DNA of 64,000 bases from an uncultured Gammaproteobacteria bacterium (GCA_963793595.1 CAWCBX010000176.1:42-64041); one strand, 5' to 3'. Numbered from the stretch's first letter, positions 6,815-23,778 are shown. Notes: generated from the letters alone by a model not told the origin. Program-made: numbers and translations.

Positions 6815-8687
6815 TTGCTAGAGGTTAACAATCTTGCTGTAGACTTTTTACTGCAGGGTAGCCCAGTGCCGGCGTTAATCGATGTTTCCTTTGCCGTCAA
6901 ACCAGGTGAGACGGTGGCCCTGGTCGGTGAGTCGGGTTCTGGTAAGTCGGTCACTTCGCAGGCGATCATGGGAATCCTGCCAGCCAATGCAAAAATTCGT
7001 GCCGGCGAGATCTGGTTCAACAACCCTGAAAGTGGCCAGTTGCTTGATATCGCCGCGCTAGATCCCGATAGCGCGCAAATACGCCAGATACGTGGCGGCG
7101 CCATATCCATCATATTTCAGGAGCCAATGACTTCGTTGTCGCCGGTGCATACCATTGGTGATCAAATCAGCGAAGCGCTGTTCCTGCACCGCGACGCCAG
7201 CCGACAGGAAGGTCTGAAACTGACCGAGACAATGTTGCAACATGTCGGTTTTGCGAACCCCTGCCCGGGCCATGAACATGTATCCGTTCGAATTGTCCGG
7301 TGGATTGCGTCAGCGCGCGATGATTGCGATGGCGATGATTTGCCATCCATCGCTGATGATAGCCGATGAACCGACCACCGCGCTCGATGTAACTATCCAG
7401 GTACGCATCCTCAAATTGATCAGGGAATTGCAGGCTGAGCTCGGCATGGCGATGTTGTTGATTACACATGACCTCGGTGTCGTCGCCAATATGGCAGACC
7501 AGGTGGTGGTGATGTATCACGGCAGGGTTATGGAAGCAGGCCCGTTGCGGGAGCTGTTCAGTAATCCACAGCATGATTATCTCAAGGCGCTGATGCATGC
7601 GGTGCCCCGATTCGATCTGAAACCGGGTGAGCGGCTGGTCCCGGTACGCGAAATTCACTCCGAAACTGGCGCCTTGATCAGGAAAGCCCCACTCGATCAG
7701 GAGCTTGTTTCCAGCGAGCCTCTGTTGAAGGTGAGTGATCTCAGCAAAACCTATCGCCTGCATGGCGGTGGCTGGATCAAGTCTGAATCACAGGACTTGC
7801 TGGCGGTTGACAGCGTGTCGTTCGAGGTCGAGCGTGGTGAGTGTTTTGGCCTGGTCGGTGAGAGCGGTTGTGGCAAGACAACCCTGAGCAAGATCATCAT
7901 GCGCGCGATTACCCCGGACCAGGGTGAGATTACCTACCATGATGGTAGCCAGGCCATCGATGTGCGCGCGCTGCAGGGCGATGACCTGCTTGCTTTCAGG
8001 CGCAAGATGCAGTTTATTTTTCAGGATCCCTATAGCGCGTTGAATCCGCGCATGACGGTGTTTGACATCCTGCGCGAACCGCTAGTCGTGCACGACCTTG
8101 GTGACATGGATTATCAACGCGAAATGGCGACCGAACTGATGCGACTGGTCGGGCTCGACCCACGTTTTTTAAGCCGATATCCGCACAGTTTTTCCGGTGG
8201 CCAGCGCCAACGTATTGGCATCGCGCGCGCCCTTGCGCTGCAACCCGACCTGATTATCTGTGATGAGCCGGTATCGGCACTGGATGTATCGATCCAGGCC
8301 CAGGTGTTGAATCTGTTGAAGGATTTGCAGCAGGAACTCGGGCTTACAGTCGTTTTTATTTCCCATAATCTCGCGGTAATCCACTATATCGCTAATCGTA
8401 TAGCGGTTATGTGCGCAGGGCGTATCGTTGAACTCGCACCGCGCGATAAACTGTTCGAGAACCCGGTTCACCCTTATACCCAGGCACTGTTATCGGCGGT
8501 GCCACACCCGGAACTTTCGCAACCATTGAGTTTCGAGGCGATTACCGAGGGCGCCGCTTCCGATCCGTCCCGGTGGCAATTTCCGTTTACCATCGATGGT
8601 AGCGTGGCAACCGAATTAATGGGTCTCGGTGGTGGTCATTTCGTCAGGGTCACGGCGGGTTCCAGACCAGCCGATGTTGCGGCATGA
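6815..8687 (+). CDS. Fused two-domain ABC ATPase of a peptide/opine-type importer (YejF/DppDF-like). The first NBD is frameshifted (+1) near 7262-7272.
   Basis: ORFs 6815-7369 and 7242-8687 are two frames of one gene. Walker A GESGSGKS then, in the other frame, [12 protein letters not shown], Walker [13 protein letters not shown]. Second NBD has [28 protein letters not shown]. Deleting one base in aaccccTgcccgggcc restores [18 protein letters not shown]. Confidence 0.7.
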
Positions 8688-10591
8688 AAATGCCCTACAA
8701 GGCCATAGCGTTAGGCGCATTCCTGTTACAGATCAGTGCTGTAAATGCATTAGACGGGTTGGTTGAAACGCCTTCACTCACTGCCCAGGTTCAATCCGGT
8801 GAGCTACCGCCGGTTGAGAATAGACTCCCGCGGGAACCGCAACTGGCCCAGTTGCGTCCGGACCAAACTGCAGGCATGCACGGCGGCGAACTGCGCCTTT
8901 TGATGGGAAAACAAAAGGACATACGGCAAATCGTAATTTACGGTTATGCCCGGCTGGTGGGTTACACGCCCGAACTGGATCTCAAGGCAGATATCCTGGA
9001 AAGTTACGAAGCGTTCGAAAATCGAGTCTTTACGCTGCATTTGCGTGAGGGGCATAAATGGTCTGATGGCCACCCCTTCACCAGCGAGGATTTCCGCTAC
9101 TACTGGGAAGATATCGCCAATAACCCGGAACTGTCCAAGGGCGGGCCCGACAAACTATTCATCATCGATGGCGAATTACCGAAGGTCGAGTACCTCGATA
9201 AGTACACCGTAAGATACAGCTGGTCCAGGCCGAATCCGTATTTCCTGCCGGCGCTCGCTGGTGCGCGGCCACTGTATATTTACAAGCCGGCGCATTACCT
9301 GCGCCAGTTTCACGCACGTTATCAAAGCGAAGAAGTGTTGCAGCAGATGATGGATGAGGCTGGCAAACGCAAGTGGACAGGGGTTCATGTCAACAAGGAC
9401 CGTCCTTACAAGGCGACCAATCCGGATCTGCCAACGCTGCAACCCTGGGTCAATTCTACCTATCCGCCTGCGGAGAGATTTATCTTCAAGCGTAACCCTT
9501 TTTACCATCGCATGGACCAGAACGGTCGCCAGTTACCTTATATCGATTCGATTGCGATCAATATTGCATCGAGCAAGCTGGTGCCGGCCAAAACCGGAGC
9601 TTACGAGTCGGATCTGCAGGCGCGTTATTTGCGTATGGATAATTACACGTTTTTAAAATCCAGTGCGAAGCGAAATGATTTTGATGTGCGCCTGTGGCAG
9701 ACCGGCAAAGGTGCACATGTTGCCCTGTATCCGAATCTGAACACCAATGATCCCGCATACCGCGAGCTGATGCGTGATGTGCGCTTTCGGCGAGCGTTGT
9801 CGCTAGCGATCCACCGTTTTGAAATCAATCAGGTGGTTTATTTCCGGCTGGTTCAGGAGAGCAATAATACGGTTCTCGCTGAAGATAAGCTGTATAAGCC
9901 GGAGTACCAGTTTGACGGTATCGAATTCGATCTTGAGCATGCCAACCAGTTGCTCGATGAATTAGGCCTCACCCAACGCGATGATCGTGGTGTGCGCCTG
10001 TTGCCTGACGGGCGTCCGCTTGAAATTCTGATTCAGACTGCCGGTGAAAGCACCGAGCAGACCGATATACTGGAACTGATACACGATAGCTGGCTCGATG
10101 CCGGAATCAAGCTGTATAGCGTACCGTCGACGCGCGAAGTATTTCGTAACCGGATATTTTCCGGTGATGCCATCATGTCGATCTGGTCGGGACTGGAAAA
10201 CGGGATGCCGACCCCGGAGAACAGTCCCAGCGATCTGGCACCCACTACGAAGTACCAGTACCAGTGGCCGCAATGGGGCGCCTACTACGAATCGAGTGGA
10301 AAAAGCGGCGAGGCGCCGGAATTACCCGCGGCCCGGGAGCTTGTCGTTTTGAATGACCAATGGGCCCGTGCCAGAACGCGTGAAGAGCGCATTGCAATCT
10401 GGCATCAGATGCTCGATATCAACCGTGAACAGATGTTCACCATCGGTATCGTCAATCATGTACCGCATCCAGTGGTAGTCAGTAATCAATTGTACAACGT
10501 CCCGGCAAAAGGTTTTTACGATATTTCTCCGGGATCGTACTTTGGCATTTACAAGCCGGATACCTTCTGGTTCGACGAGACGAGGCGCTAA
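8684..10591 (+). CDS. ABC transporter substrate-binding protein, family 5 (oligopeptide/YejA-like)
   Basis: 635 aa with signal peptide; SBP_bac_5 length and pattern. Start overlaps the ATPase stop (ATGA). Confidence 0.8.
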
Positions 10592-11589
10592 TGCTGACCT
10601 ACATTCTGCGCCGGATTCTGACCATGATCCCAACATTGCTGGTGATCAGCATGCTGGTATTCGTCATTATCCAGTTGCCACCCGGGGATTATCTGGAAAG
10701 TCATATCGCCGAACTGCAAAGCCAGGGCGAGTCGGTCGACGAGAATAAAATTGCCTTTCTGCGCGAAGAGTACGGGCTCGACAAGCCGATGCTGCAACAA
10801 TACGGGCAATGGCTTTTCGGTATGCTGCAAGGTGATTTCGGTTATTCCTTCGAGTATGATCTGCCCGTCACCGAGGTGGTCGGAGATCGACTTTTCCTGA
10901 CCGTGATAATCTCGATTACCACTATCCTGTTCACCTGGATTATCGCTTTTCCAATCGGTATTTATTCGGCCACCCATCAATATAGCTGGGGCGACTACGG
11001 GTTATCGACACTGGGGTTTCTGGGGCTGGCGACGCCGAACTTCCTGCTCGCACTGGTGATGCTTTATTTCGCCAACGTCTATTTCGGTACCAGTATCGGT
11101 GGCTTGATGGATGCGGAATATATCGATGCGCCCTGGAGTACCGACAAGATAATCTCGATACTAGAGCATTTATGGATTCCGGTTGTCGTCATCGGTACAT
11201 CAGGTACCGCCGGTATGATCAGACGCCTGCGCGCCAATCTGCTGGATGAACTGCAAAAGCAGTATGTCACCACCGGAAGGGCCAAGGGGCTGCCGCCTGG
11301 AAAATTACTCAGAAAGTACCCACTACGGGTCGCGCTCAACTTTTTTGTCGCCGATATAGGCAACCTGTTGCCGACCGTTATTTCCGGTGCAGAGATAGTG
11401 GCCGTGGTCATGTCGCTGCCAACCACCGGGCCAATTTTGCTCAGCGCGCTGCAAAGCCAGGATATGTACCTGGCCGGGTCTTTTTTGATGTTTCTGGCAT
11501 TGCTAACCGTATTCGGTGTGCTGGTTTCCGATATTGCACTGGCCATGCTCGATCCGCGTATTCGACTCGGTGGAGGCGCCAACAAGTGA
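10591..11589 (+). CDS. ABC transporter permease (YejB/DppB-like)
   Basis: 332 aa, N-terminal [10 protein letters not shown]...LPPGDY typical of DppB/YejB permeases; overlaps neighbours. Confidence 0.8.
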   Translation: MLTYILRRILTMIPTLLVISMLVFVIIQLPPGDYLESHIAELQSQGESVDENKIAFLREEYGLDKPMLQQYGQWLFGMLQGDFGYSFEYDLPVTEVVGDRLFLTVIISITTILFTWIIAFPIGIYSATHQYSWGDYGLSTLGFLGLATPNFLLALVMLYFANVYFGTSIGGLMDAEYIDAPWSTDKIISILEHLWIPVVVIGTSGTAGMIRRLRANLLDELQKQYVTTGRAKGLPPGKLLRKYPLRVALNFFVADIGNLLPTVISGAEIVAVVMSLPTTGPILLSALQSQDMYLAGSFLMFLALLTVFGVLVSDIALAMLDPRIRLGGGANK

Positions 11590-12734
11590 CCACCACGCAC
11601 TTTGTTTCACGCGAACCCTTCGATCCTCATTCGATCGAAGCACTGACCCCGGCGCAGGAAAGGTACTACATGGCCTCGCAGTGGAAACTGATGTGGTGGA
11701 AACTGCGTCGGCACCGGCTGGCCGTTATCTGCGGGGTTATCCTGGCATTAAACTATGCCACGATCATGTTTAGCGAGGTGATCGCGCCCTACAACCTGCA
11801 TACACGCAATACCGAATTTATCTATTCGCCGCCCCAATCGATACATTTATTTCACGATGGCGAGTTTATCGGGCCGTTCGTCTACGGCAGGGATTACGAG
11901 CTCGACATGGATATCCTCAAACGCAACTACCCCGAGAACAGGAATATTGTGCAACCCCTGCGTTTCTTTTGCCAGGGTGACAGCTACCGTTTCTGGGGAC
12001 TGTTTGAGGCACGCTTTCATCTGGTTTGCCCGCCTGAGAATGGCACCTTCTTTTTACTCGGTACCGACCGCCTGGGGCGGGACATGTTTTCCCGCATTAC
12101 CTATGGTGCCCGCATATCGCTCACTATTGGCCTGGTCGGAATAATTATCAGCTTTACCTTTGGCATCCTGATCGGTGGACTCGCCGGTTACTATGGCGGC
12201 TGGGTCGATGCTTCCGTGCAAAGGCTGATCGAGGTAATTCGCTCATTTCCTGAACTACCGCTGTGGATGGCGCTATCCGCGGTATTACCGATAAACTGGA
12301 GCCCGATTCTGATATTTTTCGGGATTACCGTGATTCTGGCATTGCTCGACTGGACCGGGCTGGCACGTGCGGTGCGTTCGAAGTTGCTCTCGCTGCGCGA
12401 GGAAGACTATTGTTCCGCAGCTGAACTGATGGGGGCCAAACCCGGACGCATCATCGGGCGTCATCTTTTGCCCGGATTCATGAGTCATTTGATAGCCTCG
12501 GCGACGCTGTCGATACCGGCGATGATCCTGGGCGAAACTGCGCTCAGCTTTCTTGGCCTCGGCTTAAGGCCACCGGTCACCAGCTGGGGCGTGTTGTTAA
12601 ACGAAGCGCAAAACATCAACGTGGTGGCGCTATATCCGTGGCTGCTATTCCCGGTCGTACCGGTCGTGCTGATCATCCTTACCTTTAACTTCTTCGGCGA
12701 CGGATTGCGTGATGCGGCCGATCCCTACAAGTGA
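11586..12734 (+). CDS. ABC transporter permease (YejE/DppC-like)
   Basis: 382 aa with extended N-terminus before the BPD_transp_1 core; EAA-like loop region (…GAKPGRIIGRHLLP…). Confidence 0.8.
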   Translation: MTTTHFVSREPFDPHSIEALTPAQERYYMASQWKLMWWKLRRHRLAVICGVILALNYATIMFSEVIAPYNLHTRNTEFIYSPPQSIHLFHDGEFIGPFVYGRDYELDMDILKRNYPENRNIVQPLRFFCQGDSYRFWGLFEARFHLVCPPENGTFFLLGTDRLGRDMFSRITYGARISLTIGLVGIIISFTFGILIGGLAGYYGGWVDASVQRLIEVIRSFPELPLWMALSAVLPINWSPILIFFGITVILALLDWTGLARAVRSKLLSLREEDYCSAAELMGAKPGRIIGRHLLPGFMSHLIASATLSIPAMILGETALSFLGLGLRPPVTSWGVLLNEAQNINVVALYPWLLFPVVPVVLIILTFNFFGDGLRDAADPYK

Positions 12735-12737: not shown

Positions 12738-13619
12738 ATGCCTGTCGGCTTTCAGCAACGTGACCGTTGCCCTCTGTGCGGTTCCAGCAGCAACAGGCTA
12801 CTGTGTGACATTCCGTACAGCGATCAACGGCTGGCGAATTTTGTCGAACAGTTTTACCGTGGCAGGGTAGCGTTACAAACGCTGCAATCCGCCAGCTATC
12901 GGGTGGTGCTGTGCGAAGAATGCGATTTTATCTACCAGGATTCGATTCTGGATGAAAAAGGTATGCAAACGCTGTACGAAGACTGGGTCGATCACGAGCA
13001 AAGTTTGCAGCGCAAACAAACCGCAAACAGTCAACGTTACCGCCAGTATGCTGGTCAGGTTCAGGCTCTGGTGGGCTTGCTGAATCAGCGGCCCGATCAA
13101 AGCCGAATTCTCGATTTTGGGATGGGCTGGGGTTACTGGAGCCGGATGGCACAGGCGTATGGCTTTGACGTCGTTGGGTTCGAGTTATCGAATCAACGCA
13201 GAGAATATGCCCGACAAATGGGCGTCAAAGTCATCGATACACTGCCGGCGAGCGTAGCGGATTTCGATTGTGTCTACGCTAACCAGGTATTTGAGCATTT
13301 ACCCGACCCGCTGCAGACCCTGGTAGATCTTTGTCAACAGTTGAAGCCCGGGGGAATAGTTTGTCTTCGCGTACCTGATGGCCGGGGCGTCGCCGCTCGG
13401 CTGGAACAACGAGGCTGGTCGCCTGAACTCGAAGCCGTTCATCCGCTCGAGCACATCAACTGTTTTACCCGAAAGACACTGATAAGCTTTGCGGCAAAAG
13501 CCGGATTAAAGCCTTTTAATCCACCGTTACGTTTAAGCTGGGGGAGTTTATGGGATGGAGTCAGGCGCGAGGTTGCGGATCGACTGCTAACCACACACCT
13601 TTTCCTGAGGCGTCAGTAA
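12738..13619 (+). CDS. Class I SAM-dependent methyltransferase with N-terminal CxxC...CxxC zinc-ribbon
   Basis: 293 aa. CPLCG...CEEC at N-terminus; glycine-rich SAM motif ILDFGMGWGY, acidic residue DVVGFE, motif NQVFEHLPDP, LKPGGIVCL. Starts 3 nt after the permease stop. Confidence 0.6.
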   Translation: MPVGFQQRDRCPLCGSSSNRLLCDIPYSDQRLANFVEQFYRGRVALQTLQSASYRVVLCEECDFIYQDSILDEKGMQTLYEDWVDHEQSLQRKQTANSQRYRQYAGQVQALVGLLNQRPDQSRILDFGMGWGYWSRMAQAYGFDVVGFELSNQRREYARQMGVKVIDTLPASVADFDCVYANQVFEHLPDPLQTLVDLCQQLKPGGIVCLRVPDGRGVAARLEQRGWSPELEAVHPLEHINCFTRKTLISFAAKAGLKPFNPPLRLSWGSLWDGVRREVADRLLTTHLFLRRQ

Positions 13620-13634: not shown

Positions 13635-16322
13635 TTACTCGGAGGTTAGCAAATGCTGAAAATGTGCACTGCTGGTTTGCATTTCTGCGAAAGGCCCCTG
13701 GTCGACGAGTTTGCCGCGTTCCATCACCATTACCGCATCGAACTGTTCCGCCAGCTGAACCCGTCCGAGCATCCAGAGGATGCCACGATTTTCCATCTTT
13801 TGCCTGACGTTGCCGATCAGACGACGTTCGCTGGCCGTATCCAGGCTCGATAAGGCTTCATTTACAATCAGCAAATCGGGAGCCTTCAGCAGGGCGCGCG
13901 CAAGCCCCAGTTTCTGGCGTTGAATCGAAGACAGGCGGCCACCGGCGACCCCCACTTCGTATCTAAGACCGGCTTCGATTATCTGGTTGCGCAAGCCAAG
14001 CGACTCGACTACATCAGCAATCAGGGAGTTGATTTTCTGTTGGGCATTGGCCTGGCCGTAGGCCAGTTTTCCGAACAGAATATTGTCCTGGATCGAGATG
14101 CGCGGATTGAAGCTGGACTCATCGAAAAATTCGATGCCTAGATCTTCGGTGGTCGCATGATCATGGATTTGCCGACGCGCGGCGAGTATGCGTTGCTGGA
14201 TAGACTCGGTCATCAATCCCAGTCGATGCCGAGCCACGATCAGCTTGAAAGGTAACGATATCAGGCGCCGGCGGTCGCTTTTCGGCAGGCTTTGCAGATC
14301 ATGCTGCCTGGTTTGTTGTAGCAGTTTGTTGAACTCTGGTAAATCGTCGGCCTGGATAAAGCTGAATTGTTCGAATAGCTCGCTATCGGGTTCGACGTCG
14401 GAGAAAAGGTCGAGCATGATTTCGGTTATCTTGACGCCGGCGTTGAGAAATTCATCGGTCAGGTCATTTTGCTTGAGCGCCTTTTGCATGGCCGGGTAGT
14501 CGATCAATTGTTCGACATCGATGGCGTCGTCGTAAACCGTGCCAAACAACAGGTTCTCCGATACCGTCATATTGAGATTATATTTTTCGTGGTCGAAAGG
14601 TTCGACCAGCCGGGCAATTTCGGGCTCCTTGAATTTGTCACGCAATTGCCGCCGTGCCTGCATAACTCCTGCAATGAGATCGGTATTCTCCGACTGATCC
14701 ACCAACGAGAGTAACCCGAACTGGTAAATTTCCTCATCCATTTCGACGGCTTTGAGAATATCAATAATAAACGCGGTCAGCTGCTCCCGGTTTTCCAGGC
14801 CAAGCGCCTGGAGGTCGATCCAGTCGTCGTCGTAGCGGTTGGGAGAGTTGCCTGCTCGCAGTGCGAGTGCTCGTTCAACTTCCTTGTCGTGGTCGTCAGC
14901 TTCACCAGGTATCGGGTGGTGCTTGAGCGCATAGCATAGATTGTCGTAAACCGTGCCGTTAAACATGAATGCCGCGGTTCCCACATAGCCGAGACGCCTG
15001 CCAGTGATCGATTCAGGCACATTCTCCATTTTCCAGTCACCAATGTTAATGCTGCCCGAACTGGGATTGACCAGTCTCGACATCAGTAAAGCGAGCTCTT
15101 CCTTACCGCTATTGCCCAGTCCCACCGCGGCACAGTGCTGATCTAATGGAAATTTGAAGCTGGTGCCGTCAATGCTGTAATAAAGTCCATCCTCAGTGTA
15201 GCGAATATTGTTAGCCTGAATTTCGCGACCCGGAAATTCGAGTGACTCGGGACGATTGTCGATGATGTCCATTTCGAGCATATTTTGCGGGTCAAACTGC
15301 TGGATGACCTGGCCGTACTTGACCTTTACGTCTTCCTTGCGCTGGTAGTAACGCAGCAGTTCCTTCCATGGACCGGAGAGATCCTTGTAGGCCACCAGCA
15401 CCGCGACCATCGAACCGATGGATAAATCGCCGCGTAACACGAAATAACCACCGACCGAGTAAAAGAAAAAAGGTGTCAGCTGGGCAATAAAATTATTCAG
15501 AAACTTGATGAAAAACTTGCGCTTGTAGATCGCGAAACGAATCAGGTAGATCTTGCCAAGCCGCTGGCTGATATGGGCGCGTTCGTAGTGACTGGTATCG
15601 TTGGCATGAATCTCGGTAATGCCGGAAACGGTTTCGCCGATGCGACCTGACATGTTACGCACCATCGCTACCCGTTCCTTTGAGAGGTTGTTGACGCGTT
15701 TTTGCAGGCGTGGAATCACGACAAGCTGAAACGGGTACAGCGAAATCGCGGCCAGGCCGAGAAACAGGTCCTGTTGAAAGATGAAAACCAGGTAAGTCAG
15801 CAGTATACCGCCCTGAAACACCGGCAGGGTGAAGGATTCGCCGATGAATTCGCCTAAAATTTCCGTCTCTGAAGTGATCATCGGGATCAGTTCATTCGAC
15901 GAAACTCGTTTGAAATGCGGCATTGGAAAGCGCAGGATACGTTCGTAAAGTTCGAACCTGAGTCTGCGCAGCACACGTTCGCCAAGTGCGCCACGGTATA
16001 CGTTTAATAGATACTTTAAACCTCCACTAACAAGCACCACCAGCAGGAAGGCAAAACTGAACAGCAACAGGAACTCGAGACGATCAAGCTCGTAGCCGAA
16101 AATCGCCTGCGGAACTTCCTGTCCTTCGAGCAGGTTGATTATTTTCTTGGGTAGTTCGAGGGTAACGTAAACCAGGGGAAGCGAAACCAGCGACAGTATA
16201 ATCAGGCCTATCTGGTCTTTCTTACTGTGATCAAGTATGTATCTGTAAAGCGATGGTTCCATATATTTCCAGTTTCTGATGCTTACCTGGCCGTCGGGTT
16301 CCAGACCTGGTGTTGCTAGCAC
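13635..16322 (-). CDS. ABC exporter-type protein (N-terminal 6-TM ABC_membrane domain plus C-terminal NBD) with degenerate ATPase motifs and a ~300-aa insertion inside the NBD
   Basis: 895 aa. TMD then NBD: Walker A-like GLGNSGKEEL (no S/T after GK), Q-loop-like YVGTAAF, signature LSSIQRQK (for LSGGQ), Walker B LLIVNEALSSLD (D to N), no H-loop histidine (ILWMLGRVQ). A likely true start is the internal Met (MEPSLYRY…) ~60 nt downstream of the ORF start. Confidence 0.7.
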   Translation of the reverse strand: MLATPGLEPDGQVSIRNWKYMEPSLYRYILDHSKKDQIGLIILSLVSLPLVYVTLELPKKIINLLEGQEVPQAIFGYELDRLEFLLLFSFAFLLVVLVSGGLKYLLNVYRGALGERVLRRLRFELYERILRFPMPHFKRVSSNELIPMITSETEILGEFIGESFTLPVFQGGILLTYLVFIFQQDLFLGLAAISLYPFQLVVIPRLQKRVNNLSKERVAMVRNMSGRIGETVSGITEIHANDTSHYERAHISQRLGKIYLIRFAIYKRKFFIKFLNNFIAQLTPFFFYSVGGYFVLRGDLSIGSMVAVLVAYKDLSGPWKELLRYYQRKEDVKVKYGQVIQQFDPQNMLEMDIIDNRPESLEFPGREIQANNIRYTEDGLYYSIDGTSFKFPLDQHCAAVGLGNSGKEELALLMSRLVNPSSGSINIGDWKMENVPESITGRRLGYVGTAAFMFNGTVYDNLCYALKHHPIPGEADDHDKEVERALALRAGNSPNRYDDDWIDLQALGLENREQLTAFIIDILKAVEMDEEIYQFGLLSLVDQSENTDLIAGVMQARRQLRDKFKEPEIARLVEPFDHEKYNLNMTVSENLLFGTVYDDAIDVEQLIDYPAMQKALKQNDLTDEFLNAGVKITEIMLDLFSDVEPDSELFEQFSFIQADDLPEFNKLLQQTRQHDLQSLPKSDRRRLISLPFKLIVARHRLGLMTESIQQRILAARRQIHDHATTEDLGIEFFDESSFNPRISIQDNILFGKLAYGQANAQQKINSLIADVVESLGLRNQIIEAGLRYEVGVAGGRLSSIQRQKLGLARALLKAPDLLIVNEALSSLDTASERRLIGNVRQKMENRGILWMLGRVQLAEQFDAVMVMERGKLVDQGPFAEMQTSSAHFQHLLTSE

Positions 16323-16378
16323 GACATGTCATGCCGGTGTACTATCGCGCATCGATCGATTTATATCAAATACAGGTT

Positions 16379-17626
16379 ATGCCACCCAGGCTGGCAATTG
16401 TTTTAAAAGGCTACCCACGCTTATCGGAAACTTTCATCGCGCAGGAAATCAGGGCGCTTGAGCTGCGTGGCTTCGAGCTCTGTATCTTTTCGCTGCGTCA
16501 CCCCTATGATCCGGCAACGCACCCGATTCATGCCGAAATTGAAGCGCCGGTTTATTATTTGCCCGAGTATGTACACGATGATATCCCCGCGGTGCTGCGT
16601 GCGTTTTTACGAGTATGCTGGAAACCCGGGTTCTGGCGAGCTCTGACGGCCTTTAGCCGGGATTTATGGCGCGATCCGACGCGTAACCGAATGCGCCGCT
16701 TTGCGCAGTCGATGGTTATGGCACACAAGATGCCTGCTACGGTGCAACACTACTATAACCATTTCATGCATACGCCTGCGTCGGTAACTTACTACGCCAG
16801 CAAAATCAATCAAACCCCCTGGAGCGTATCCGCGCATGCCAAGGATATCTGGACCATTCCCGAATGGGAACTGCGCGAAAAGCTGGCAAGTAGCCAATGG
16901 TTGGTTACCTGCACCCGCGCCAACGAAAAGTATCTCTCCAGCCTGGCTGACACTGAGGACAAGGTGACACTGCTTTATCACGGGCTGGACTTTGATCGGT
17001 TTGGTGAAAAACCGGAAACCGCGTCAAATCGGGACGGCAGCGATGCAGACAATGAAGTTCGTTTGATCAGTGTTGGTCGCGCAGTAGATAAAAAAGGATA
17101 CCAGACTCTGCTGACGGCATTGTCCGCTTTGCCGGCGACGCTGCATTGGCGATTTGTGCATATCGGCGGTGGTGAATTGCTCGAACAATTACAACAGCAG
17201 GCACGCGAATATGGCATCGACAGGCGCATAAAGTGGCTGGGCGCATTACCGCAAACGGAGGTTCTGGCGCAGTATCGTGACGCGGATTTATTTGTACTGC
17301 CGAGCCAGATATCGGCTGATGGCGATCGCGATGGATTGCCCAACGTGTTGATGGAAGCGCAAAGTCAGAACCTGGCCTGTTTATCGACCAACATATCAGG
17401 CATACCGGAACTGATCATTCATGCCGAAACCGGATGGCTGGTCGAACAAAAAAATCACCAGCAGCTGACCCAGGCGCTACAGAAAATGATCGCTGATCCG
17501 GAGTTGCGCAGCAGGCTGGCACAGGCAGGGTTCGATCGCGTGCGTCGCGAATTTTCGATGGATCGGGGAATCGATACCCTGGTTAGCAGGCTGCAGCAGT
17601 CAATGGGGGTCAATAATCAGTCATGA
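16379..17626 (+). CDS. Glycosyltransferase family 4 (GT-B, GT1 fold)
   Basis: Start chosen at MPPRLAIVLKGYPRLSETFIAQEI, typical of GT4. C-terminal EGLPNVLMEAQ-type motif (DGLPNVLMEAQSQNLACLST). Transcribed divergently from the ABC gene. Confidence 0.75.
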   Translation: MPPRLAIVLKGYPRLSETFIAQEIRALELRGFELCIFSLRHPYDPATHPIHAEIEAPVYYLPEYVHDDIPAVLRAFLRVCWKPGFWRALTAFSRDLWRDPTRNRMRRFAQSMVMAHKMPATVQHYYNHFMHTPASVTYYASKINQTPWSVSAHAKDIWTIPEWELREKLASSQWLVTCTRANEKYLSSLADTEDKVTLLYHGLDFDRFGEKPETASNRDGSDADNEVRLISVGRAVDKKGYQTLLTALSALPATLHWRFVHIGGGELLEQLQQQAREYGIDRRIKWLGALPQTEVLAQYRDADLFVLPSQISADGDRDGLPNVLMEAQSQNLACLSTNISGIPELIIHAETGWLVEQKNHQQLTQALQKMIADPELRSRLAQAGFDRVRREFSMDRGIDTLVSRLQQSMGVNNQS

Positions 17627-18210
17627 AACTCGCCTTGCTTCGACATGCCGTGACTGACTGGAATCTTGAAAAACGGGTCCAGGGCCGAATCGATCAACCC
17701 CTGTCCGCGAGCGGACGTCGGCAATTCCAGGATCTGCTGTTACCGCCGGAATTTACTGCCTGTCGTTGGTATTGCAGTCCCCTGCGTCGTGCCACGCAGA
17801 CGGCAGAATTACTGGGCTTGACTGCAATCGAGATAGAGGATGCGTTAATTGAAATGAGTTGGGGTGACTGGGAAGGCGAAATACTCAAACCCCTGCGCAA
17901 GCGGCTAGGCGACGAGATGCGGGATAACGAGCGTCGCGGGATCGACTTTTGCCCACCGGGCGGAGAAAGCCCACGCCAGGTCCAGGCCCGGCTGCAAACC
18001 TGGTTACGGCAAATTGGCGCGTTACGGCAGGATACTGCGGCGGTAGTGCACAAAGGCATAATTCGCTGTATTTATGCGCTCGCCTGCGACTGGGACATGT
18101 GCGGTGAATCGCCAGTCGATTTTGCCTGGGATTCGATCCACCAGTTCGAACTCCGCGCTGACGGCAAACTACTCGATAGTTACCAGTCCATCCCCCTCAT
18201 CAAATCCTGA
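17623..18210 (+). CDS. Histidine phosphatase family protein (phosphoglycerate mutase-like)
   Basis: N-terminal LLRHAVTDWN (RHG motif region). 195 aa. Overlaps the GT4 stop. Confidence 0.7.
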   Translation: MKLALLRHAVTDWNLEKRVQGRIDQPLSASGRRQFQDLLLPPEFTACRWYCSPLRRATQTAELLGLTAIEIEDALIEMSWGDWEGEILKPLRKRLGDEMRDNERRGIDFCPPGGESPRQVQARLQTWLRQIGALRQDTAAVVHKGIIRCIYALACDWDMCGESPVDFAWDSIHQFELRADGKLLDSYQSIPLIKS

Positions 18211-18437: not shown

Positions 18438-19211
18438 CTATTTCCAGATGGTGGCGGCGTCGAGCCAGTTGACAGCGGGGTGGTCGGACAGGAATTGCAG
18501 CAGGTCTTCGAGGAAGCGCCAGACCGCCTCGTTTTGCACCAGGTGATGGGTCAGGATGCCGGTAGGTTCTTCGATATCACGGTAGCCGGTGCGCCTGGCC
18601 TGCAGGTGCTGAATCAGAATCGCGATGGCGGGGTAGACACCGATAAAACCGCCCTGGTGACGCCAGTTTATCGGGTCGAGATGCGTGTTTACCTGGAGTA
18701 ATCCAGGCGCAGGATATGCTTTACGGCGCACCTTCATTGTCGAAATTCCGGCAAATCCGATTTCGTTTAAACGCGATACAACCTGGTCGTCAATTCGATT
18801 CCAGGGCGGCACCAATACCGGTTTGAAGCGATCGGCGAAATGCTGCTCGAGGATCTGGTAGCCCCGTTCCAGATCGGCAATAATCTGCTTACTGGCGTGG
18901 CTACCCCCGAGTTCGAGCTTGCGTTGCCCGCGGGCGGCGTGGTTTTCATGCGCATAGCCGTGTTGCAATACGGCTATCAGTGCCCGGTCCCGCAGAAAAT
19001 CGACCAGTTCAGGCTTGAGCCTGGACGGGATCACCGCCAGCGCCAACGGGGTATCCCGGTTGTAACTTAACCCAAGCAGTCGATCGAGTGCTCTACCGGG
19101 CCCGGTCGCGTCGTCGTCACGCCACCAGAAATCCACTGATTTGTCCATATCAGCCCATGCATCAAGCTCGCCACCAAGCCATAGCCAGGCCTTTGCAGAT
19201 AGAGTTCTCAT
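18438..19211 (-). CDS. Polysaccharide deacetylase family protein (NodB-like, divergent)
   Basis: 257 aa; WWRDDDA motif and His-rich downstream motifs characteristic of CE4-like deacetylases. Confidence 0.65.
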   Translation of the reverse strand: MRTLSAKAWLWLGGELDAWADMDKSVDFWWRDDDATGPGRALDRLLGLSYNRDTPLALAVIPSRLKPELVDFLRDRALIAVLQHGYAHENHAARGQRKLELGGSHASKQIIADLERGYQILEQHFADRFKPVLVPPWNRIDDQVVSRLNEIGFAGISTMKVRRKAYPAPGLLQVNTHLDPINWRHQGGFIGVYPAIAILIQHLQARRTGYRDIEEPTGILTHHLVQNEAVWRFLEDLLQFLSDHPAVNWLDAATIWK

Positions 19212-20374
19212 TTTCCCGCCATCGCGTTATTCAGCCATTGCGAGATCATAGTGGCGCTGTTACCGGCGCCGCCGAGGTTTACTTCAAGCGAGGGTTCTTG
19301 CCGGTCAGCCTGTTCGATTGCCGAGGCTAAAGTTGCTACCGATAATTCGTTTTGTTGCAGCATAACCAGTCGACCGAGGCGTTGCAGTTTTCGTGCGCGC
19401 ATGGTTTGTTCGATTTCATCGGCTTCGGCATAAGGGATTACGACCGCGGCGGCAGTGCTGTTCAGGATGTCGGTGATCGTGTTGTAACCTGCTTGCGAAA
19501 TTGACAGCCTGGCGCGCTTAACGAGTTCGCTAAAGTCGGGTCGGTTACGTTCGATAATGGTGCCTTCGCCGGCGAGCCGCTTGAGCTCTGCAAGATGTGA
19601 CTCATCGATTGAAGGGCTTACCAGTATTCTCCAGCGCAGGTCCTTGAGTATCGACATGGGTTTGGCCGCGATTGCAGCTGTCAGAATATCCAGCCCGGTG
19701 GAGCTGCCGCCGGCAGATACCAGTACTTCGTTAACGCCGTCACCGGGGACTGACACTGTCCCCCCGGAAGCGCAGATATAGCCACTATAAAAGACTTTGT
19801 CGCTTATTCGATCTGCCAGCGGAAAACTTTCCTCGAGTCCGACTATTTTCTGGTCTCCGTGCACCAGTACGTAATCGTAAAATTCGCTTACCAGGTCGCA
19901 AATTTCTTCATTGCGTCCCGCCCTGGATTTAGGCTGCAGAATATCTCGTATCGAAGCAATGACCTGGGTACAAGTGGAACTGGCCCTGGCAGCCTGAAGC
20001 AGCGGTATCAACTCAAAACGCATCATGCGCCTGCCAAATGGAAATGTTTCAGTTATCAAAACCTGCGGTGAGCAGGAGGCGAAGATTTCAAGCAATTGTT
20101 GTTTGCGTTGGTCGCACCAGTCGGCGTTTATCGGGTTGCCATCCTGATCCAGTAGACGGGTAAAACTACCATCGGGGCTGTACACCGGCGGTAGTTGCCG
20201 CAGTCGAACGCCTGTCGGCATGGTTAAGGCCTGTGCTCTACCACCGGATACCAGTTCAACCGCAAAATCATGTCTCGCCAGTTCGGCTGCCAGTTGCAGA
20301 GAACGCTGCAGGTGCCCGACACCCAGTAGATGCTGGACATAGATCATGGCGCGTAATGACGAACTGATCGACAA
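19208..20374 (-). CDS. MurG/PseG-like GT28-superfamily glycosyltransferase
   Basis: 388 aa; N-terminal YVQHLLGVGHLQR (GxGHxxR) as in PseG/MurG-like N-domains and a C-terminal GT28_C-like region. Paralogous to the next gene. Stop overlaps the deacetylase start. Confidence 0.6.
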   Translation of the reverse strand: MSISSSLRAMIYVQHLLGVGHLQRSLQLAAELARHDFAVELVSGGRAQALTMPTGVRLRQLPPVYSPDGSFTRLLDQDGNPINADWCDQRKQQLLEIFASCSPQVLITETFPFGRRMMRFELIPLLQAARASSTCTQVIASIRDILQPKSRAGRNEEICDLVSEFYDYVLVHGDQKIVGLEESFPLADRISDKVFYSGYICASGGTVSVPGDGVNEVLVSAGGSSTGLDILTAAIAAKPMSILKDLRWRILVSPSIDESHLAELKRLAGEGTIIERNRPDFSELVKRARLSISQAGYNTITDILNSTAAAVVIPYAEADEIEQTMRARKLQRLGRLVMLQQNELSVATLASAIEQADRQEPSLEVNLGGAGNSATMISQWLNNAMAGK

Positions 20375-20383: not shown

Positions 20384-21589
20384 TTAGGCAGTTATACTTT
20401 CTTGTGCCGAAGGTTCGAAATATTCGCGTACCATTTCAGCGATGTTCTCGTGTCCTGCCAACAAGCCGGGAACATTTGCCAGGGAGGGTTTCGCCTGCTC
20501 TGGTAAAGCCCGTATTGCTGCGGCCATTTGCATAGGATCTCGTTCGCCGGCGGGATCGAGCATGCTCACCAGGTTCAGTTTTACCGCGCGCTCGGCGCGA
20601 ATCAATTGTTCCTGCCGGGGAACCGATCTGGGGATTATCAGGGCAGGTTTATCCAGGGTCAGAATTTCGCAAAAAGTGTTGTAACCACCCATCGCGACGA
20701 TAGCAATCGCTCTTTCCATGAGTAGTTCGATATGGCTGTCGAAGGTCAGAATTTCGACATTTGACAGCGCGTCGCAGCGTTCGTGAAATTCCTGCTGTTC
20801 GGCCGGGGGCATAAATGGTCCGGTTACAATAATCGCCCGGTATGGTTGTTGCTGATCAACCTCGTAGGCGCGGATCACCCAGTCGACCATTTCAACACCA
20901 TCGCCTCCACCGCCGGCGGTGACCAGGATAAATGGGTCGTCGTGACTGATCGGCGAGACCCAGTTGCGATCACTGGGGATTTCCCGCCCAAGGTAGCCGG
21001 TATACGAAATCTTGCTTGTGATCGAAGCGGGCAGATCCAGGCCTTCAACAGGGCTGCCCATCTCCTCCAAACCATAGACCCAGATATCGTGATACAGGTT
21101 CTCCAGCACTGGTGCCACCTGTTTACGTTCCCATTCGGCCTTTAATAGAATGGGATCGTCCATGACATCGCGTAATCCGAGCACGTTGATGGCGCCTTGC
21201 TGTTTGAGCATCTCGAGGGTAGTGGTTACTTCCCCCTGCAGGCCTGTGGGTTCTTTGTCGACGAGAAATATATCGGGCTTAAAAGTGGCTGCGGTGTGAT
21301 AGATGATGGATTCCCGCATCAGTAAGGTCTGTTCCAGATCGATATGAAGCCCTAATGATGTGTATTCGCCATCTCGCAGCTTGATAACCCCGGGGATGCG
21401 CACGAAATCAACCCGCGCTTTAAAGTCAAAACTGCCGATAATCGGAGAACCTGACAGAATGAGCACCGATAGCCCCTTGTATTGAGCTACCAGTGAGTGG
21501 GCGATCGAACGACAGCGTCGCAGGTGCCCAAGGCCAAAAGAGTCATGGCTATAGATAAGGATTCTGGATTGGTCCAGTCGCTCGGTCAT
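20384..21589 (-). CDS. MurG/PseG-like GT28-superfamily glycosyltransferase (paralogue)
   Basis: 401 aa; N-terminal IYSHDSFGLGHLRRCRSIA, and C-terminal VAMGGYNTFCEIL (GGxxT-like donor-binding segment). Confidence 0.6.
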   Translation of the reverse strand: MTERLDQSRILIYSHDSFGLGHLRRCRSIAHSLVAQYKGLSVLILSGSPIIGSFDFKARVDFVRIPGVIKLRDGEYTSLGLHIDLEQTLLMRESIIYHTAATFKPDIFLVDKEPTGLQGEVTTTLEMLKQQGAINVLGLRDVMDDPILLKAEWERKQVAPVLENLYHDIWVYGLEEMGSPVEGLDLPASITSKISYTGYLGREIPSDRNWVSPISHDDPFILVTAGGGGDGVEMVDWVIRAYEVDQQQPYRAIIVTGPFMPPAEQQEFHERCDALSNVEILTFDSHIELLMERAIAIVAMGGYNTFCEILTLDKPALIIPRSVPRQEQLIRAERAVKLNLVSMLDPAGERDPMQMAAAIRALPEQAKPSLANVPGLLAGHENIAEMVREYFEPSAQESITA

Positions 21590-21685: not shown

Positions 21686-23095
21686 TTGACAAGTAGTCCT
21701 GTCTTAGTCTCAGGTTGCAGAATACGCATGTTGGAGCAGGTATTGAACAAAAATCTGGTAAAAACTGGTTCCAAATCTCATTGGTCGTTGCTGGGTCGCG
21801 ATTTTCAGTACGAGGTTTTGCCGGAGCGGCTGCGTAAATCGATACAGGATCAGCAGGAACGCAGCGAAATTCTGATTAGCGTGATCCAGCTGGTTATCGT
21901 TTGCATATTCGGCTTCCTTTACGCGATAGCGCCAAAAACCTTTTCACAGGATGCTGATTTTGCACCGGTACCCTGGGTGCTGACTATCTATCTTGCGTTC
22001 AGCCTGCTGCGCCTTTACCTCGCTGTTAAGCGCAAGCTCCCGGACTGGATGTTGTATCTCTCCTCGGTCGTGGATATAGCGCTGTTGCTCGGCCTGATCT
22101 GGAGTTTTCACCTGCAGTACGAGCAGCCGCCATCTTTTTACCTGAAGGCACCGACTTTACTGTACCTGTTTATTTTTATTGCCATACGGGCGTTACACTT
22201 CGATCCTCGATTTGTCATTTCGACGGGTGTCAGTGCTGCCATCGGCTGGGTGATGATGGTTATCTATGTGCTGGTTATCGACCCCACCAATAACATGATT
22301 ACCCGCGATTACATCGAATACATGACTTCCAACAGCGTTTTGATCGGAGCCGAGTTTGACAAGATAGTATCGATATTAATGGTGACCGGCGTGCTGGCGC
22401 TTGCCTTGCACCGTGCCAGAAACCTGCTGGTCGAGTCGGTTATTGAAGGTAGCGCAGCGCGCGATTTGTCGCGTTTCGTGCCTGAAGAGATCGCGCAAAA
22501 GGTAACCCAGTCGGAAGAGGGCGCGATTACAGGTAAAGGTGAAGTCAGCGAGTGCACCATATTGTTTACCGATATCGAGGGCTTTACGGCTATCAGTGAG
22601 ACCCTGACGCCGGAAAAATTGATTGAGGCGTTGAATCGCTATTTCAGCCTGATAGCAGGACCGATTACCGAACATGGCGGTGTTATCAGTCAGTTTCAGG
22701 GAGATGCCGTGCTGGCAACCTTTAATGTCCCCAAACCCGATAGCGACCATGCCAGTAACGCGGTTAGAGCCGCGCTGGATATCCAGTCGGTGCTGGAGGG
22801 TGTTGAGTTTGGTGATGGCATTCATTTCAATACCCGGGTAGGCATCAATACCGGAGCGGTGGTTGGTGGGCTGGTTGGGTCTGGAGACCGGGTCGGTTAT
22901 ACCGTGCATGGTGACAATGTCAATTTGACGGCGCGCCTCGAGCAGCTCAACAAGGACTATGGCACCCGCATCATCGTTGCCGATAGTACGCTGGCAGAGA
23001 TCCCCGATGGCAGATTTGCATTCAGCGAACTGGGCGAGGTTTCGGTACGTGGGTTGAACCGGCCGGTCAGAATTTACACGGTGAAGGACCTTTAG
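21686..23095 (+). CDS. Membrane-anchored class III adenylate/guanylate cyclase
   Basis: N-terminal ~6 TM helices, then CHD catalytic domain: ILFTDIEGFTAISE, ...GDAVLATFNVP..., RVGINTGAVVGG. The start codon is uncertain (internal Met at ~21728 possible). Confidence 0.8.
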   Translation: MTSSPVLVSGCRIRMLEQVLNKNLVKTGSKSHWSLLGRDFQYEVLPERLRKSIQDQQERSEILISVIQLVIVCIFGFLYAIAPKTFSQDADFAPVPWVLTIYLAFSLLRLYLAVKRKLPDWMLYLSSVVDIALLLGLIWSFHLQYEQPPSFYLKAPTLLYLFIFIAIRALHFDPRFVISTGVSAAIGWVMMVIYVLVIDPTNNMITRDYIEYMTSNSVLIGAEFDKIVSILMVTGVLALALHRARNLLVESVIEGSAARDLSRFVPEEIAQKVTQSEEGAITGKGEVSECTILFTDIEGFTAISETLTPEKLIEALNRYFSLIAGPITEHGGVISQFQGDAVLATFNVPKPDSDHASNAVRAALDIQSVLEGVEFGDGIHFNTRVGINTGAVVGGLVGSGDRVGYTVHGDNVNLTARLEQLNKDYGTRIIVADSTLAEIPDGRFAFSELGEVSVRGLNRPVRIYTVKDL

Positions 23096-23778
23096 TTTAC
23101 TCGCTGCCGGATTCGGCCTATGGGAGTTTGCGCAGCTGATCGAAATATTTTGCCAGGTTGTCGCGAGCTTGCTGTTCGTAGCGTTGACGAAAGAAATCGG
23201 TTTGATAAAAGTGCGGCCTGGCAGCCAGGCAGGAGCGGAATTCTCCCTGTTTGTCGATTATAGTCAGCATCACTAAGCTGGGCGCTTTCCTCGCGCAGGT
23301 GAAGGCTGTCACGCAAAAAATCTTCCCAGGGAAGTCCGAAACTGGACAGGTCGATGTCGACCATGTAACCGGCGTCGCTATCATCTAGTGAGCACTGGTT
23401 GTGCAAGGTTGCCATAATCAGCTTGCCTACCAACGCGCGGAATTCGTCAGCATGGACCCCTGCGGAAAGCTCTGCGTAGAGTTCGGCACTGAGGGCTTCA
23501 TTGTCACTTTTTCCGGGTTCGAAGATGACATCGTGAAACCAGACCGCGATTTCCAGCGCGTCGGGATTGGTGGCGAGTGATTTACATTGATCGAACATCG
23601 ACAGGCAATGATCGATGTGGGCGAGAGTATGATAGCGACGTTGTGGCTCATTGTAGCCGTCAACCAGGCGTTGATGAATCGCGACACTAGCGTCGGCCGC
23701 ACCCTCGATCAGGCAGCGTTGCCATAATGACTGAAAACGGTTGAGCCCGCTGATCGCTTCCACCGCAGGCGACGTCAT
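23092..23778 (-). CDS. HD-domain (metal-dependent phosphohydrolase-like) protein
   Basis: 228 aa; RYHTLAHIDHC ... AVWFHDVIFEP matches the H...HD metal-binding pattern. Family assignment is tentative. Confidence 0.45.
   Translation of the reverse strand: MTSPAVEAISGLNRFQSLWQRCLIEGAADASVAIHQRLVDGYNEPQRRYHTLAHIDHCLSMFDQCKSLATNPDALEIAVWFHDVIFEPGKSDNEALSAELYAELSAGVHADEFRALVGKLIMATLHNQCSLDDSDAGYMVDIDLSSFGLPWEDFLRDSLHLREESAQLSDADYNRQTGRIPLLPGCQAALLSNRFLSSTLRTASSRQPGKIFRSAAQTPIGRIRQRVN

Follow-up and report, generated by a model that had tools for sequence, protein, structure and literature searches.

A degenerate ABC exporter with a triplicated nucleotide-binding domain module, linked to a cyclic nucleotide-binding protein and a red/opt-type glycosyltransferase cluster in Proteobacteria

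An ABC exporter family with degenerate catalytic motifs

We analyzed a stretch of 64,000 nucleotides from an uncultured Gammaproteobacteria bacterium (GCA_963793595.1 CAWCBX010000176.1:42-64041), called the window in the following. Its minus strand carries an open reading frame, 13635-16322(-), for a protein of the ATP-binding cassette (ABC) exporter type, for which the name ABCx is used here. By its fold ABCx is a member of the ABC superfamily, yet all five catalytic motifs deviate from the consensus. Its nucleotide-binding domain (NBD) contains a large insertion, its family is linked to a cyclic nucleotide-binding (CNB) domain, and its gene lies in a glycosyltransferase cluster which corresponds to the rhizobial red/opt locus. 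We infer that ABCx may be a homodimeric translocator, which works independently of ATP hydrolysis, is switched by the CNB protein and moves a glycoconjugate made by RedA and RedB. We give this reading a little less than an even chance.

An earlier annotation made from the sequence alone (the sequence-only reading) had described a protein of 895 amino acids, which is the length of the open reading frame counted from the GTG at 16322. Since the homologues mostly have 875-877 amino acids and an N-terminus of the sequence MEPSLY, the true start is most likely the ATG at 16262 (M21), 20 codons further downstream. As predicted from the open reading frame, the lengths and starts of the homologues and the Pfam matches (ABC_membrane and a split ABC_tran), the coding sequence would be 13635..16262(-), encoding 875 amino acids plus stop codon. 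Residue numbers refer to this form unless stated otherwise; the numbering of the 895-residue form runs 20 higher.

The transmembrane domain (TMD; residues 1-325, 15288..16262(-)) consists of six long helices in a type-IV exporter fold, as judged from Pfam, the helices of the AlphaFold2 model and Foldseek. ABC_membrane matches residues 85-311 (E=6e-21; 75.7 bits against a cut-off of 28). ABC_tran is found in two stretches (46.5 bits against a cut-off of 25), the second of which resumes at residue 709 in the 895-residue numbering. The AlphaFold2 model of the whole protein has a mean pLDDT of 86.5 and a pTM of 0.83. With Foldseek it matched TmrAB, MsbA, PCAT1 and P-gp, with a probability of 1.00 for TmrAB, MsbA and P-gp; these matches span only ~575 residues (TMt ~0.65, TMq ~0.45). 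The Pfam and Foldseek matches confirm the earlier assignment to the type-I exporters, as the type-IV exporters were formerly called.

An alignment with BmrA, given here in the 895-residue numbering, places residues 60-498 of ABCx on residues 40-469 of BmrA and residues 788-886 on residues 470-568. This alignment fixes the motif register and the site of the insertion: about 290 surplus residues are located in the helical subdomain, after the Q-loop region and ahead of the signature motif. The N-terminal core of the NBD (residues 340-446, 14925..15245(-)) contains a Walker A of the sequence GNSGKEE, which deviates from GxxGxGK[ST] in that Glu takes the place of Ser/Thr, the Lys being kept. It also contains a Q-loop (VGTAAF) with Thr instead of Gln. 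In the C-terminal core (residues 771-875, 13638..13952(-)) the signature is LSSIQ instead of LSGGQ and the Walker B is LLIVNE instead of hhhhDE, with the Glu kept. The H-loop position is occupied by Gly, not His, and the D-loop reads SSLD. Both cores were defined by the BmrA alignment and by motif counts in the family. The motifs had thus been read in the correct register and the canonical ones are indeed absent; to the degenerate Walker A, Walker B and signature and the missing H-loop His described before, the exchange of the Q-loop Gln is added. With these motifs, conventional ATP hydrolysis by ABCx appears unlikely.

For identification of relatives, only the insertion (residues 450-770; 470-790 in the 895-residue numbering) was searched against 1.84 billion representative proteins. 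The search gave 897 matches, 574 of them at E ≤ 1e-10 and 221 at E ≤ 1e-30, and in full-length relatives the insertion is located at ~460-780. In a scan of one genome per GTDB species, at least 530 genomes contained an ABCx relative. The family spans Alpha-, Beta- and Gammaproteobacteria; the matches listed include cultured Azospirillum, Nisaea, Sneathiella and Inquilinus as well as beta- and gammaproteobacterial lineages. Relatives are also present on plasmid or chromid records of Rhizobium (144), Sinorhizobium (80), Ensifer and others. Because degeneracy and insertion both recur across hundreds of homologues, they are not due to chance.

Motif counts and invariant residues were taken from an alignment of 62 family sequences. 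The position of the Walker A Lys is occupied by Lys in 30/62, by Arg in 16/62 and by Ala in 10/62 sequences, and the following position by Ser in 14/62. Only 4/62 sequences have the Q-loop Gln. At the Walker B Asp position Asn (38/62) is found more often than Asp (17/62), the catalytic Glu is present in 23/62, and His is not among the residues listed for the H-loop position in these 62 sequences. The consensus of the signature is L-[STP]-x-x-Q. The best-conserved part of the family is the TMD: mean column identity reaches 0.46 there, compared to 0.28-0.29 in the NBD core and 0.26-0.34 in the individual parts of the insertion. Conserved residues of the TMD include Lys, Arg and Asn in transmembrane helix 5 (TM5) as well as residues of the coupling helices. 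Since conservation in an ordinary ABC exporter usually peaks in the NBD, the pattern is inverted in the ABCx family. As judged from these alignments, the targets of selection are the membrane domain and the new module, and catalysis is not among them.

In the sources checked, no specific family name for ABCx was found. Relatives are publicly labeled only as “ABC transporter ATP-binding protein” or “ABC transporter transmembrane domain-containing protein”. Literature searches for CNB domains in combination with ABC proteins, for degenerate NBDs and for helical-subdomain insertions did not reveal a description of the ABCx architecture in the searchable literature.

Two groups of unusual relatives were observed. 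Proteins encoded on plasmids of the Roseobacter group (Roseobacter, Phaeobacter, Sulfitobacter, Pseudosulfitobacter and Leisingera) match only the TMD of ABCx (residues 1-323, ~40% identity) and are labeled “ABC transporter transmembrane domain-containing protein”. These could be relatives which lack the NBD or carry a different tail. In addition, the ABC-containing stop-to-stop frames of five beta- or alphaproteobacterial loci (L031, L042, L051, L083 and L068) are 1198-1425 amino acids long. The long frame in L068 is a fusion with a CNB domain; those in L031, L042, L051 and L083 may contain extra fused domains or long upstream open frames.

The insertion contains a repeated NBD module

An acidic, helix-rich insertion of ~300 residues had already been noticed from the sequence. 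Its size (~290 residues), its acidity (pI 4.64, 18% Asp and Glu) and its mainly helical structure in the AlphaFold2 model bear this out, but the insertion is more than a linker and shows an internal triplication. Self-comparison of the NBD region with BLASTP did not detect internal repeats, and the triplication is visible only by profile-profile comparison. With hhalign, copy B (residues 530-620) and copy C (residues 690-775) are homologous with a probability of 99.4% (E=2.3e-21), and the canonical Q-loop segment (residues 413-526; copy A) matches copy C with 90% and copy B with 83%. The copies share a layout of a helix, a short strand, the pattern F/Y-D...YN...S/T-x-x-(D/E)-N-(I/L)-L-F-G and two helices ending in Gly-Leu. 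This corresponds to the stretch of a normal NBD from the strand preceding the Q-loop through the helical subdomain. On the evidence of the profile comparisons, the insertion is the Q-loop/helical-subdomain module, present three times, together with a unique helical segment.

The remainder of copy A (residues 447-529, 14676..14924(-)) and copy B (residues 530-612, 14427..14675(-)) were both assigned by hhalign. The former carries the conserved motif GNS...W.D with the nearly invariant W481, the latter the motif LVEPFD...YN.N..V.ENLLFG with the invariant N570. Copy C (residues 690-770, 13953..14195(-); IEFFD...N....S.QDNILFG) was assigned by Pfam ABC_tran and hhalign, contains the invariant N727 and G731 and leads into the signature. 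Between copies B and C lies the unique helical segment of ~75 residues (residues 613-689, 14196..14426(-); ELFsDlPPGH..FE.FSFI...RHRLGL), which stands out by its conservation, with nearly invariant H679 and R680, and by its confident fold. It was also considered whether this segment arose from the signature and Walker B region by copying and decay; this was rejected, and the segment is taken as unique, because hhalign gave no support for such an origin (probability 1.9%). Structure prediction, which had been proposed as a check, gave a confident helical fold for the insertion alone (pLDDT 83.5, pTM 0.77). A Foldseek search of the isolated insertion against the PDB gave no match at E ≤ 0.001, the best one having E=0.8 and a TM of ~0.12-0.14.

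Linkage to a cyclic nucleotide-binding protein

The window encodes a stand-alone CNB protein of 155 amino acids (23778..24245(-); Pfam cNMP_binding, E=1.6e-17, 63.7 bits against a cut-off of 27.5), the putative partner of ABCx. Its phosphate-binding cassette keeps the Gly-Glu and the Arg, as seen from the alignment of GELGLLNNTPRIATL with GELALMYNSPRAATV of the regulatory subunit of protein kinase A (PKA). By fold and cassette it belongs to PF00027, for which ligand binding is predicted. A weak match to TIGR03896 was also found.

For the analysis of gene neighborhoods, 86 related loci were used with regard to CNB adjacency and fusion, cyclases and second exporters, and 84 loci with regard to all other cluster genes. 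The CNB gene adjoins the ABC gene on its downstream side in 59/86 loci, is fused to it in 3/86 and is located elsewhere within 10 kb in 11/86; it is missing in 13/86, mostly on truncated contigs. Fusions are more frequent among distant relatives, where 19 of the 61 full-length representatives have a length of 1010-1206 amino acids, all 19 with a C-terminal cNMP_binding domain. The CNB protein of the window aligns nearly over its full length with these fused domains (26-39% identity, E down to 4e-31). By adjacency or fusion, the ABCx family is consistently linked to a CNB domain in the genomes compared, and this conserved arrangement argues for a functional link between the two proteins.

In two of the fused proteins, P0176 (1156 amino acids) and P0181 (1206 amino acids), a GGDEF domain follows the C-terminal CNB domain, which hints at cross-talk with cyclic di-GMP signaling or at a signaling output.

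Such an output domain would also suit a different role, in which ABCx and the CNB protein form a non-transporting membrane sensor or scaffold, like SUR or the ABC “sensors” of Bacillus, and either recruit or control the Red glycosyltransferases or contribute to nucleotide signaling. The family-wide loss of a functional NBD fits this role, the insertion represents two extra grooves of the coupling-helix type which could bind partner proteins, and the rhizobial CNB gene pRL110046 has a root-attachment phenotype. However, the strongest conservation is found in the TMD, including TM5 and the coupling-helix residues, as a substrate pathway predicts, although a ligand-sensing TMD would do so too, and most loci contain no other candidate for an exporter or flippase. 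We consider a sensor or scaffold rather unlikely. The choice posed in the sequence-only reading, between a non-canonical exporter or flippase and a regulatory or scaffold protein, still names the right two options.

Rhizobial orthologues and their mutant phenotypes

The gene order of the window cluster matches that of the red/opt cluster of Rhizobium, and the importer proteins of the window are 50-70% identical to those of the Rhizobium Opt importer (optA-D). On the basis of this synteny and of the orthology of glycosyltransferases and importer, the cluster is orthologous to the rhizobial red/opt locus. The pathway, described before as uncharacterised, is therefore one with published mutant phenotypes. 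In R. johnstonii 3841 and R. etli CFN42 a cyclase gene, four importer genes, three glycosyltransferase genes, ABCx and the CNB gene follow one another in this order and are all co-directional. The old Rhizobium locus tags and the gene names redA, redB, redAh, opt and cyaA are those of an insertion sequencing (INSeq) table; the cyclase gene of the rhizobial cluster is cyaA (pRL110055).

The ABCx orthologue pRL110047 shows the full architecture and is more degenerate than the protein of the window. Its Walker A (GSGAEAF) has no Lys and its Walker B (FIFNRP) neither Asp nor Glu; the signature reads LTMVQ, and a His at the H-loop is likewise missing. In the INSeq study pRL110047 was classified as “nodule-general”, which means that it is required in nodules, and it was neutral in the earlier conditions; the CNB gene pRL110046 and redB were likewise essential in the last two conditions, redA and redAh were each neutral, and mutants of optA and optD were advantaged in rhizosphere and root (bioRxiv 10.1101/2020.05.07.082560). 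Furthermore, pRL110046 is needed for root attachment at pH 6.5 and 7.5 (bioRxiv 10.1101/2022.11.21.517457). The mutant phenotype of a protein free of catalytic residues is the strongest argument that this family does not work by ATP hydrolysis. The phenotype shared by the three genes supports the view that ABCx, the CNB protein and RedB act in one pathway, and the neutral redA and redAh mutants would fit redundancy between paralogues.

A second exporter-type half-transporter was found neither in the 64-kb window nor in the 86 related loci, in agreement with the earlier remark that no partner is adjacent. Because 0/86 loci encode such a protein, parsimony favors a homodimer in which both sites are degenerate. 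Together with the family-wide motif loss this sustains the view, put forward in the sequence-only reading, that such a homodimer is unlikely to hydrolyze ATP conventionally. One could still imagine a conventional ATP-driven exporter, either with substitute catalytic residues or with an unlinked canonical half-transporter as partner, as in TM287/288 and TmrAB. The Walker A Lys and Walker B Glu kept in the window protein would speak for it, as would the fact that exporters with one degenerate site are common (PMC7756269). Against it, the family shows no conservation of the Lys of Walker A, the Gln of the Q-loop, the Asp of Walker B or the His of the H-loop, and the orthologue of Rhizobium is functional without the Lys and the Glu. 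The genes for the two subunits of a heterodimeric exporter normally lie side by side, which does not agree with the absence of a second exporter gene from all 86 related loci. Pairing with another subunit would also leave both composite sites impaired, since ABCx would contribute a degenerate Walker A and a degenerate signature. We regard this explanation as very improbable.

The protein encoded by pRL110046 (155 amino acids; 16818-17285 in locus L086) is annotated and discussed in the literature as a transcriptional regulator of the FNR/CRP family. Since the orthologues of similar size in the window and in Nisaea (151 amino acids) contain only the cNMP_binding domain in Pfam, this label is probably wrong, and re-annotation would make pRL110046 a transporter partner instead of a transcription factor. 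Divergently upstream of the rhizobial cluster lies a gene for a nucleotide-sugar dehydrogenase, pRL110056 (852-2189 in L086; 1-1034 in L087), annotated as UDP-GlcNAc 6-dehydrogenase, which has the nodule-defective INSeq phenotype in common with ABCx and may be a clue to the sugar involved. A paper on the Clr regulon of S. meliloti was followed as a lead and dismissed, as it deals with a different cluster (nodP2 to smb21248). The Opt importer and the red genes of R. etli are said to have been studied by Vos et al. in 2007; the opt mutants reportedly fixed less nitrogen and showed higher resistance to bacitracin, higher sensitivity to ampicillin and lower osmotolerance.

Genes of the glycosyltransferase and importer cluster

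The genes around ABCx are summarized here with their occurrence in the related loci. Divergent from ABCx lies a GT4 glycosyltransferase gene (16310..17626(+); Pfam Glycos_transf_1; 61/84 loci), the redB orthologue with 52% identity to pRL110049. It is followed by a gene for a branch 1 histidine phosphatase (17623..18210(+); Pfam His_Phos_1, E=1.7e-37; 50/84 loci), which is absent from the Rhizobium version of the cluster. On the other strand, a deacetylase-like protein is encoded at 18438..19211(-) (46/84 loci); its matches to Polysacc_deac_1 (E=0.002) and DUF2334 (E=0.006) are both below the curated cut-off. Two MurG-like glycosyltransferases with a GT28 C-terminal domain follow: GT28a (19208..20374(-); Pfam Glyco_tran_28_C; 60/84 loci), the redAh orthologue with 36% identity to pRL110048, and GT28b (20384..21589(-); Pfam; 58/84 loci), the redA orthologue with 51% identity to pRL110050. 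GT28b is the best-conserved enzyme of the cluster (54-76% identity across the 58/84 loci). In sequence searches against the PDB nothing was found for the deacetylase-like protein, and GT28b matched only CalG2 (E=0.0065).

Upstream on the plus strand, the open reading frames of a Yej/Opp-like (Opt) ABC importer were identified (6815..12734(+)), namely a fused double ATPase, a substrate-binding protein of the SBP_bac_5 family and two permeases. The Yej/Opp-like substrate-binding protein is found in 41/84 loci. The importer is followed by a class I S-adenosylmethionine-dependent methyltransferase gene (12738..13619(+); Pfam Methyltransf_23), which occurs in 5/84 loci, all of the lineage of the window. 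A frameshift at ~7257-7264, shortly before the first signature, breaks the double-ATPase gene (YejF/OptD homologue, 6815-8687(+)) into two open reading frames which overlap: frame 2 encodes residues 1-147 and frame 3 residues 145-622. In relatives it is a single protein of 622-623 amino acids. This could be an assembly error or a real pseudogene.

A membrane-anchored class III nucleotide cyclase is encoded at 21686..23095(+) (Pfam Guanylate_cyc, E=2.6e-28; PDB matches). It is nearest to Cya2 of Synechocystis. Its base-specifying positions contain a Gln, where adenylate cyclases have Lys and Cya2 has Glu, and a Thr (in “YTVHG”). Because this pair is non-canonical, the nucleotide produced is uncertain. 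Between the cyclase and the CNB gene, and overlapping both, lies a gene for a protein of 228 amino acids (23092..23778(-)), which co-occurs with them in gamma- and betaproteobacterial lineages (8 loci) and has no match in Pfam, NCBIfam or PDB. An H..H...HD-like pattern could point to a phosphohydrolase; the suspicion of an HD-type phosphodiesterase was dropped, as no family match supports it.

The same cluster genes recur across Alpha-, Beta- and Gammaproteobacteria at only 41-47% identity of the ABC protein. In Nisaea they form translationally coupled operons divergent from the ABCx-CNB pair. Alphaproteobacterial versions of the cluster, as seen in Nisaea nitritireducens (L016), have two additional genes without a counterpart in the window: a second GT4 gene (6104-7231(-), 375 amino acids) between the GT4 and histidine phosphatase genes, and a Methyltransf_17 gene (13129-13617(+)) directly after the CNB gene. 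The GT4, histidine phosphatase, deacetylase and two further glycosyltransferases recognized as neighbors before are supported by Pfam, although the deacetylase match is weak. A look at distribution and neighborhood, which had been suggested, shows an insertion-bearing family with a conserved glycosyltransferase cluster. The extent of the cluster had been drawn too narrowly: the linkage to glycosyltransferases stands, but the CNB gene, the class III cyclase and the importer had been left out.

The proximity of the importer raises the question whether ABCx could itself be an importer for peptides or glycopeptides, driven by the proton motive force like SbmA/BacA and acting beside Opt. The SbmA/BacA fold is known to work without an NBD, ABCx adjoins an importer of the PepT family, and both ABCx and bacA are required in nodules. 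However, Pfam assigns the TMD to ABC_membrane, with no match to SbmA_BacA listed, and a large, conserved, remodeled NBD with a CNB partner would be needless for a simple carrier of this kind. The INSeq phenotypes differ as well, with ABCx being nodule-defective and optA and optD advantaged in rhizosphere and root, and the tightest linkage is that to the glycosyltransferases. An importer role is improbable in our opinion.

Proposed mechanism

Enzymes of the GT-B type from GT4 and GT28, for which MurG, PimA and the glycosyl-diacylglycerol synthases are examples, typically use lipids or small acceptors on the cytoplasmic side of the membrane. RedA and RedB may accordingly build a glycolipid or an oligosaccharide on this side of the inner membrane. 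If the Opt importer is set aside, no membrane transporter other than ABCx is a constant member of the cluster. Since ABCx also has an exporter fold, translocation of the RedA/RedB product is the favored function, and the ABCx homodimer would be the flippase, exporter or gated conduit for this product. The ligand of the CNB protein would most likely be cyclic AMP (cAMP) or cyclic GMP (cGMP) from the neighboring cyclase. In the ligand-bound state the CNB partner would dock on the acidic insertion or be released from it and, taking over from ATP, would thereby determine how the NBDs are arranged. Conservation in the family is particularly high in the coupling-helix region (E132, E134) and in the ENLLFG/DNILFG modules. 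As ENLLFG/DNILFG corresponds to the groove for the coupling helix in normal NBDs, communication between NBD and TMD seems to be preserved. Closure and opening of the NBDs could be relayed to the TMD by way of the coupling helices, which are conserved, and of the repeated ENLLFG grooves. ATP would not power the net transport of the substrate, which would instead run downhill or be drawn by a sink.

If so, ABCx would represent a new functional class, a second-messenger-gated flippase or exporter of an envelope glycoconjugate which rhizobia require in nodules, in which ligand binding by the CNB domain on the triplicated platform replaces ATP as the conformational switch. This wider proposal is somewhat more tentative, and we would not call it probable.

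Several observations weigh against a CNB-switched translocator independent of ATP hydrolysis. A functional link to the CNB domain is evident from adjacency and fusion, but a mechanism is not, and in the window the CNB gene is ~7.5 kb away from ABCx, not adjacent. The GGDEF domain in a few members fits a signaling role as well as gating. The Walker A Lys is kept by roughly half of the members, among them the protein of the window, which has the Walker B Glu as well, so some members may still bind nucleotides or hydrolyze them slowly. With regard to the ligand, a class III cyclase gene within 10 kb is found in only 16/86 loci, and the base-specifying pair of the window cyclase is canonical neither for adenylate nor for guanylate cyclases. 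The cyaA gene was neutral in the INSeq study (bioRxiv 10.1101/2020.05.07.082560), and the CNB domain of HetC binds guanosine tetraphosphate (ppGpp), not cAMP (PMC10986499). Finally, no energy source for uphill transport by ABCx was identified.

Comparison with known systems

MsbA, BmrA, NdvA/ChvA and PglK gave the best sequence and fold matches and have the TMD fold and the half-transporter layout in common with ABCx; MsbA, PglK and NdvA also share the genomic tie to glycoconjugate synthesis. In contrast to these proteins, ABCx has five deviant motifs, a triplicated insertion of ~290 residues, a TMD which is more conserved than the NBD, and a CNB partner. Its scores fall far short of the curated cut-offs for MsbA (TIGR02203 / NF008381, 178.3 bits vs 602 and 107.7 vs 867) and for the NdvA/ChvA glucan exporters (NF010178 / TIGR01192, 120.6 bits vs 733 and 85.7 vs 585), and the same holds for HepA, CydDC and every other family tested. 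A known family such as the glucan exporters, which had been named as a possible explanation for the architecture, does not account for it.

Coupling of an exporter to a CNB domain is seen in HetC and in the TIGR03896 CNB proteins of bacteriocin-type exporters. HetC of Nostoc PCC 7120, a peptidase-containing ABC transporter, is an ABC exporter coupled to a CNB-fold domain which is essential for its function (PMC10986499). HetC has an N-terminal CNB domain, a C39 peptidase domain and a canonical, essential ATPase (E970), and no insertion. In ABCx, unlike HetC, the CNB domain is provided in trans or located at the C-terminus, only ABC_membrane and ABC_tran are found by Pfam and the ATPase is degenerate.

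Non-consensus Walker B, signature and H-loop motifs are also known from TM287/288, TmrAB, TAP, CFTR and MsRv1273c/72c. The degenerate site of such one-site exporters takes over a structural or regulatory role (PMC7756269). They always keep one consensus site, contributed by the partner or the second half, whereas a partner of ABCx is encoded in 0/86 loci and both sites of its homodimer would be degenerate. A conceptual analogy is given by CFTR and SUR, in which the ABC exporter fold acts as a gated conduit or switch under the control of second messengers. CFTR and SUR bind ATP, CFTR also hydrolyzes it, and control by cAMP is indirect, via phosphorylation of the R domain by PKA. Beyond the ABC fold they are not known to have homology to ABCx. 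SbmA/BacA and Rv1819c show that the exporter fold can function without, or apart from, ATP-driven export, and bacA is needed in nodules. SbmA/BacA has no NBD and belongs to a different Pfam family, whereas ABCx keeps and elaborates its NBD.

The closest counterpart in terms of gene content is the opt-redA-redB operon of R. etli (Vos et al. 2007, Environ Microbiol 9:1665, PMID 17564602), whose opt, redA, redB and redAh genes are orthologous to the importer, GT28b, GT4 and GT28a genes of the window. In R. etli CFN42 and R. johnstonii 3841 the ABCx and CNB genes lie immediately downstream of the opt-red genes; outside the INSeq tables they appear only as “permease of ABC exporter” and “FNR/CRP regulator”. 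Compared to the rhizobial cluster, the lineage of the window adds the histidine phosphatase, the deacetylase-like gene and the methyltransferase. With orthologues in genetically tractable rhizobia and a confident model, the role of ABCx can be tested now. If the CNB protein gates translocation, this would be a direct link of cAMP or cGMP signaling to the export of envelope glycans in bacteria and a natural experiment on NBD motions which are driven without ATP. ABC exporters are the standard example of pumps driven by ATP, and the known exceptions either keep one active site, like CFTR, TAP and TmrAB, or drop the NBD, like SbmA/BacA. The ABCx family, which has gained a CNB partner where such exporters are usually encoded alone, keeps and elaborates the NBD, while both sites of the putative homodimer lose catalysis.

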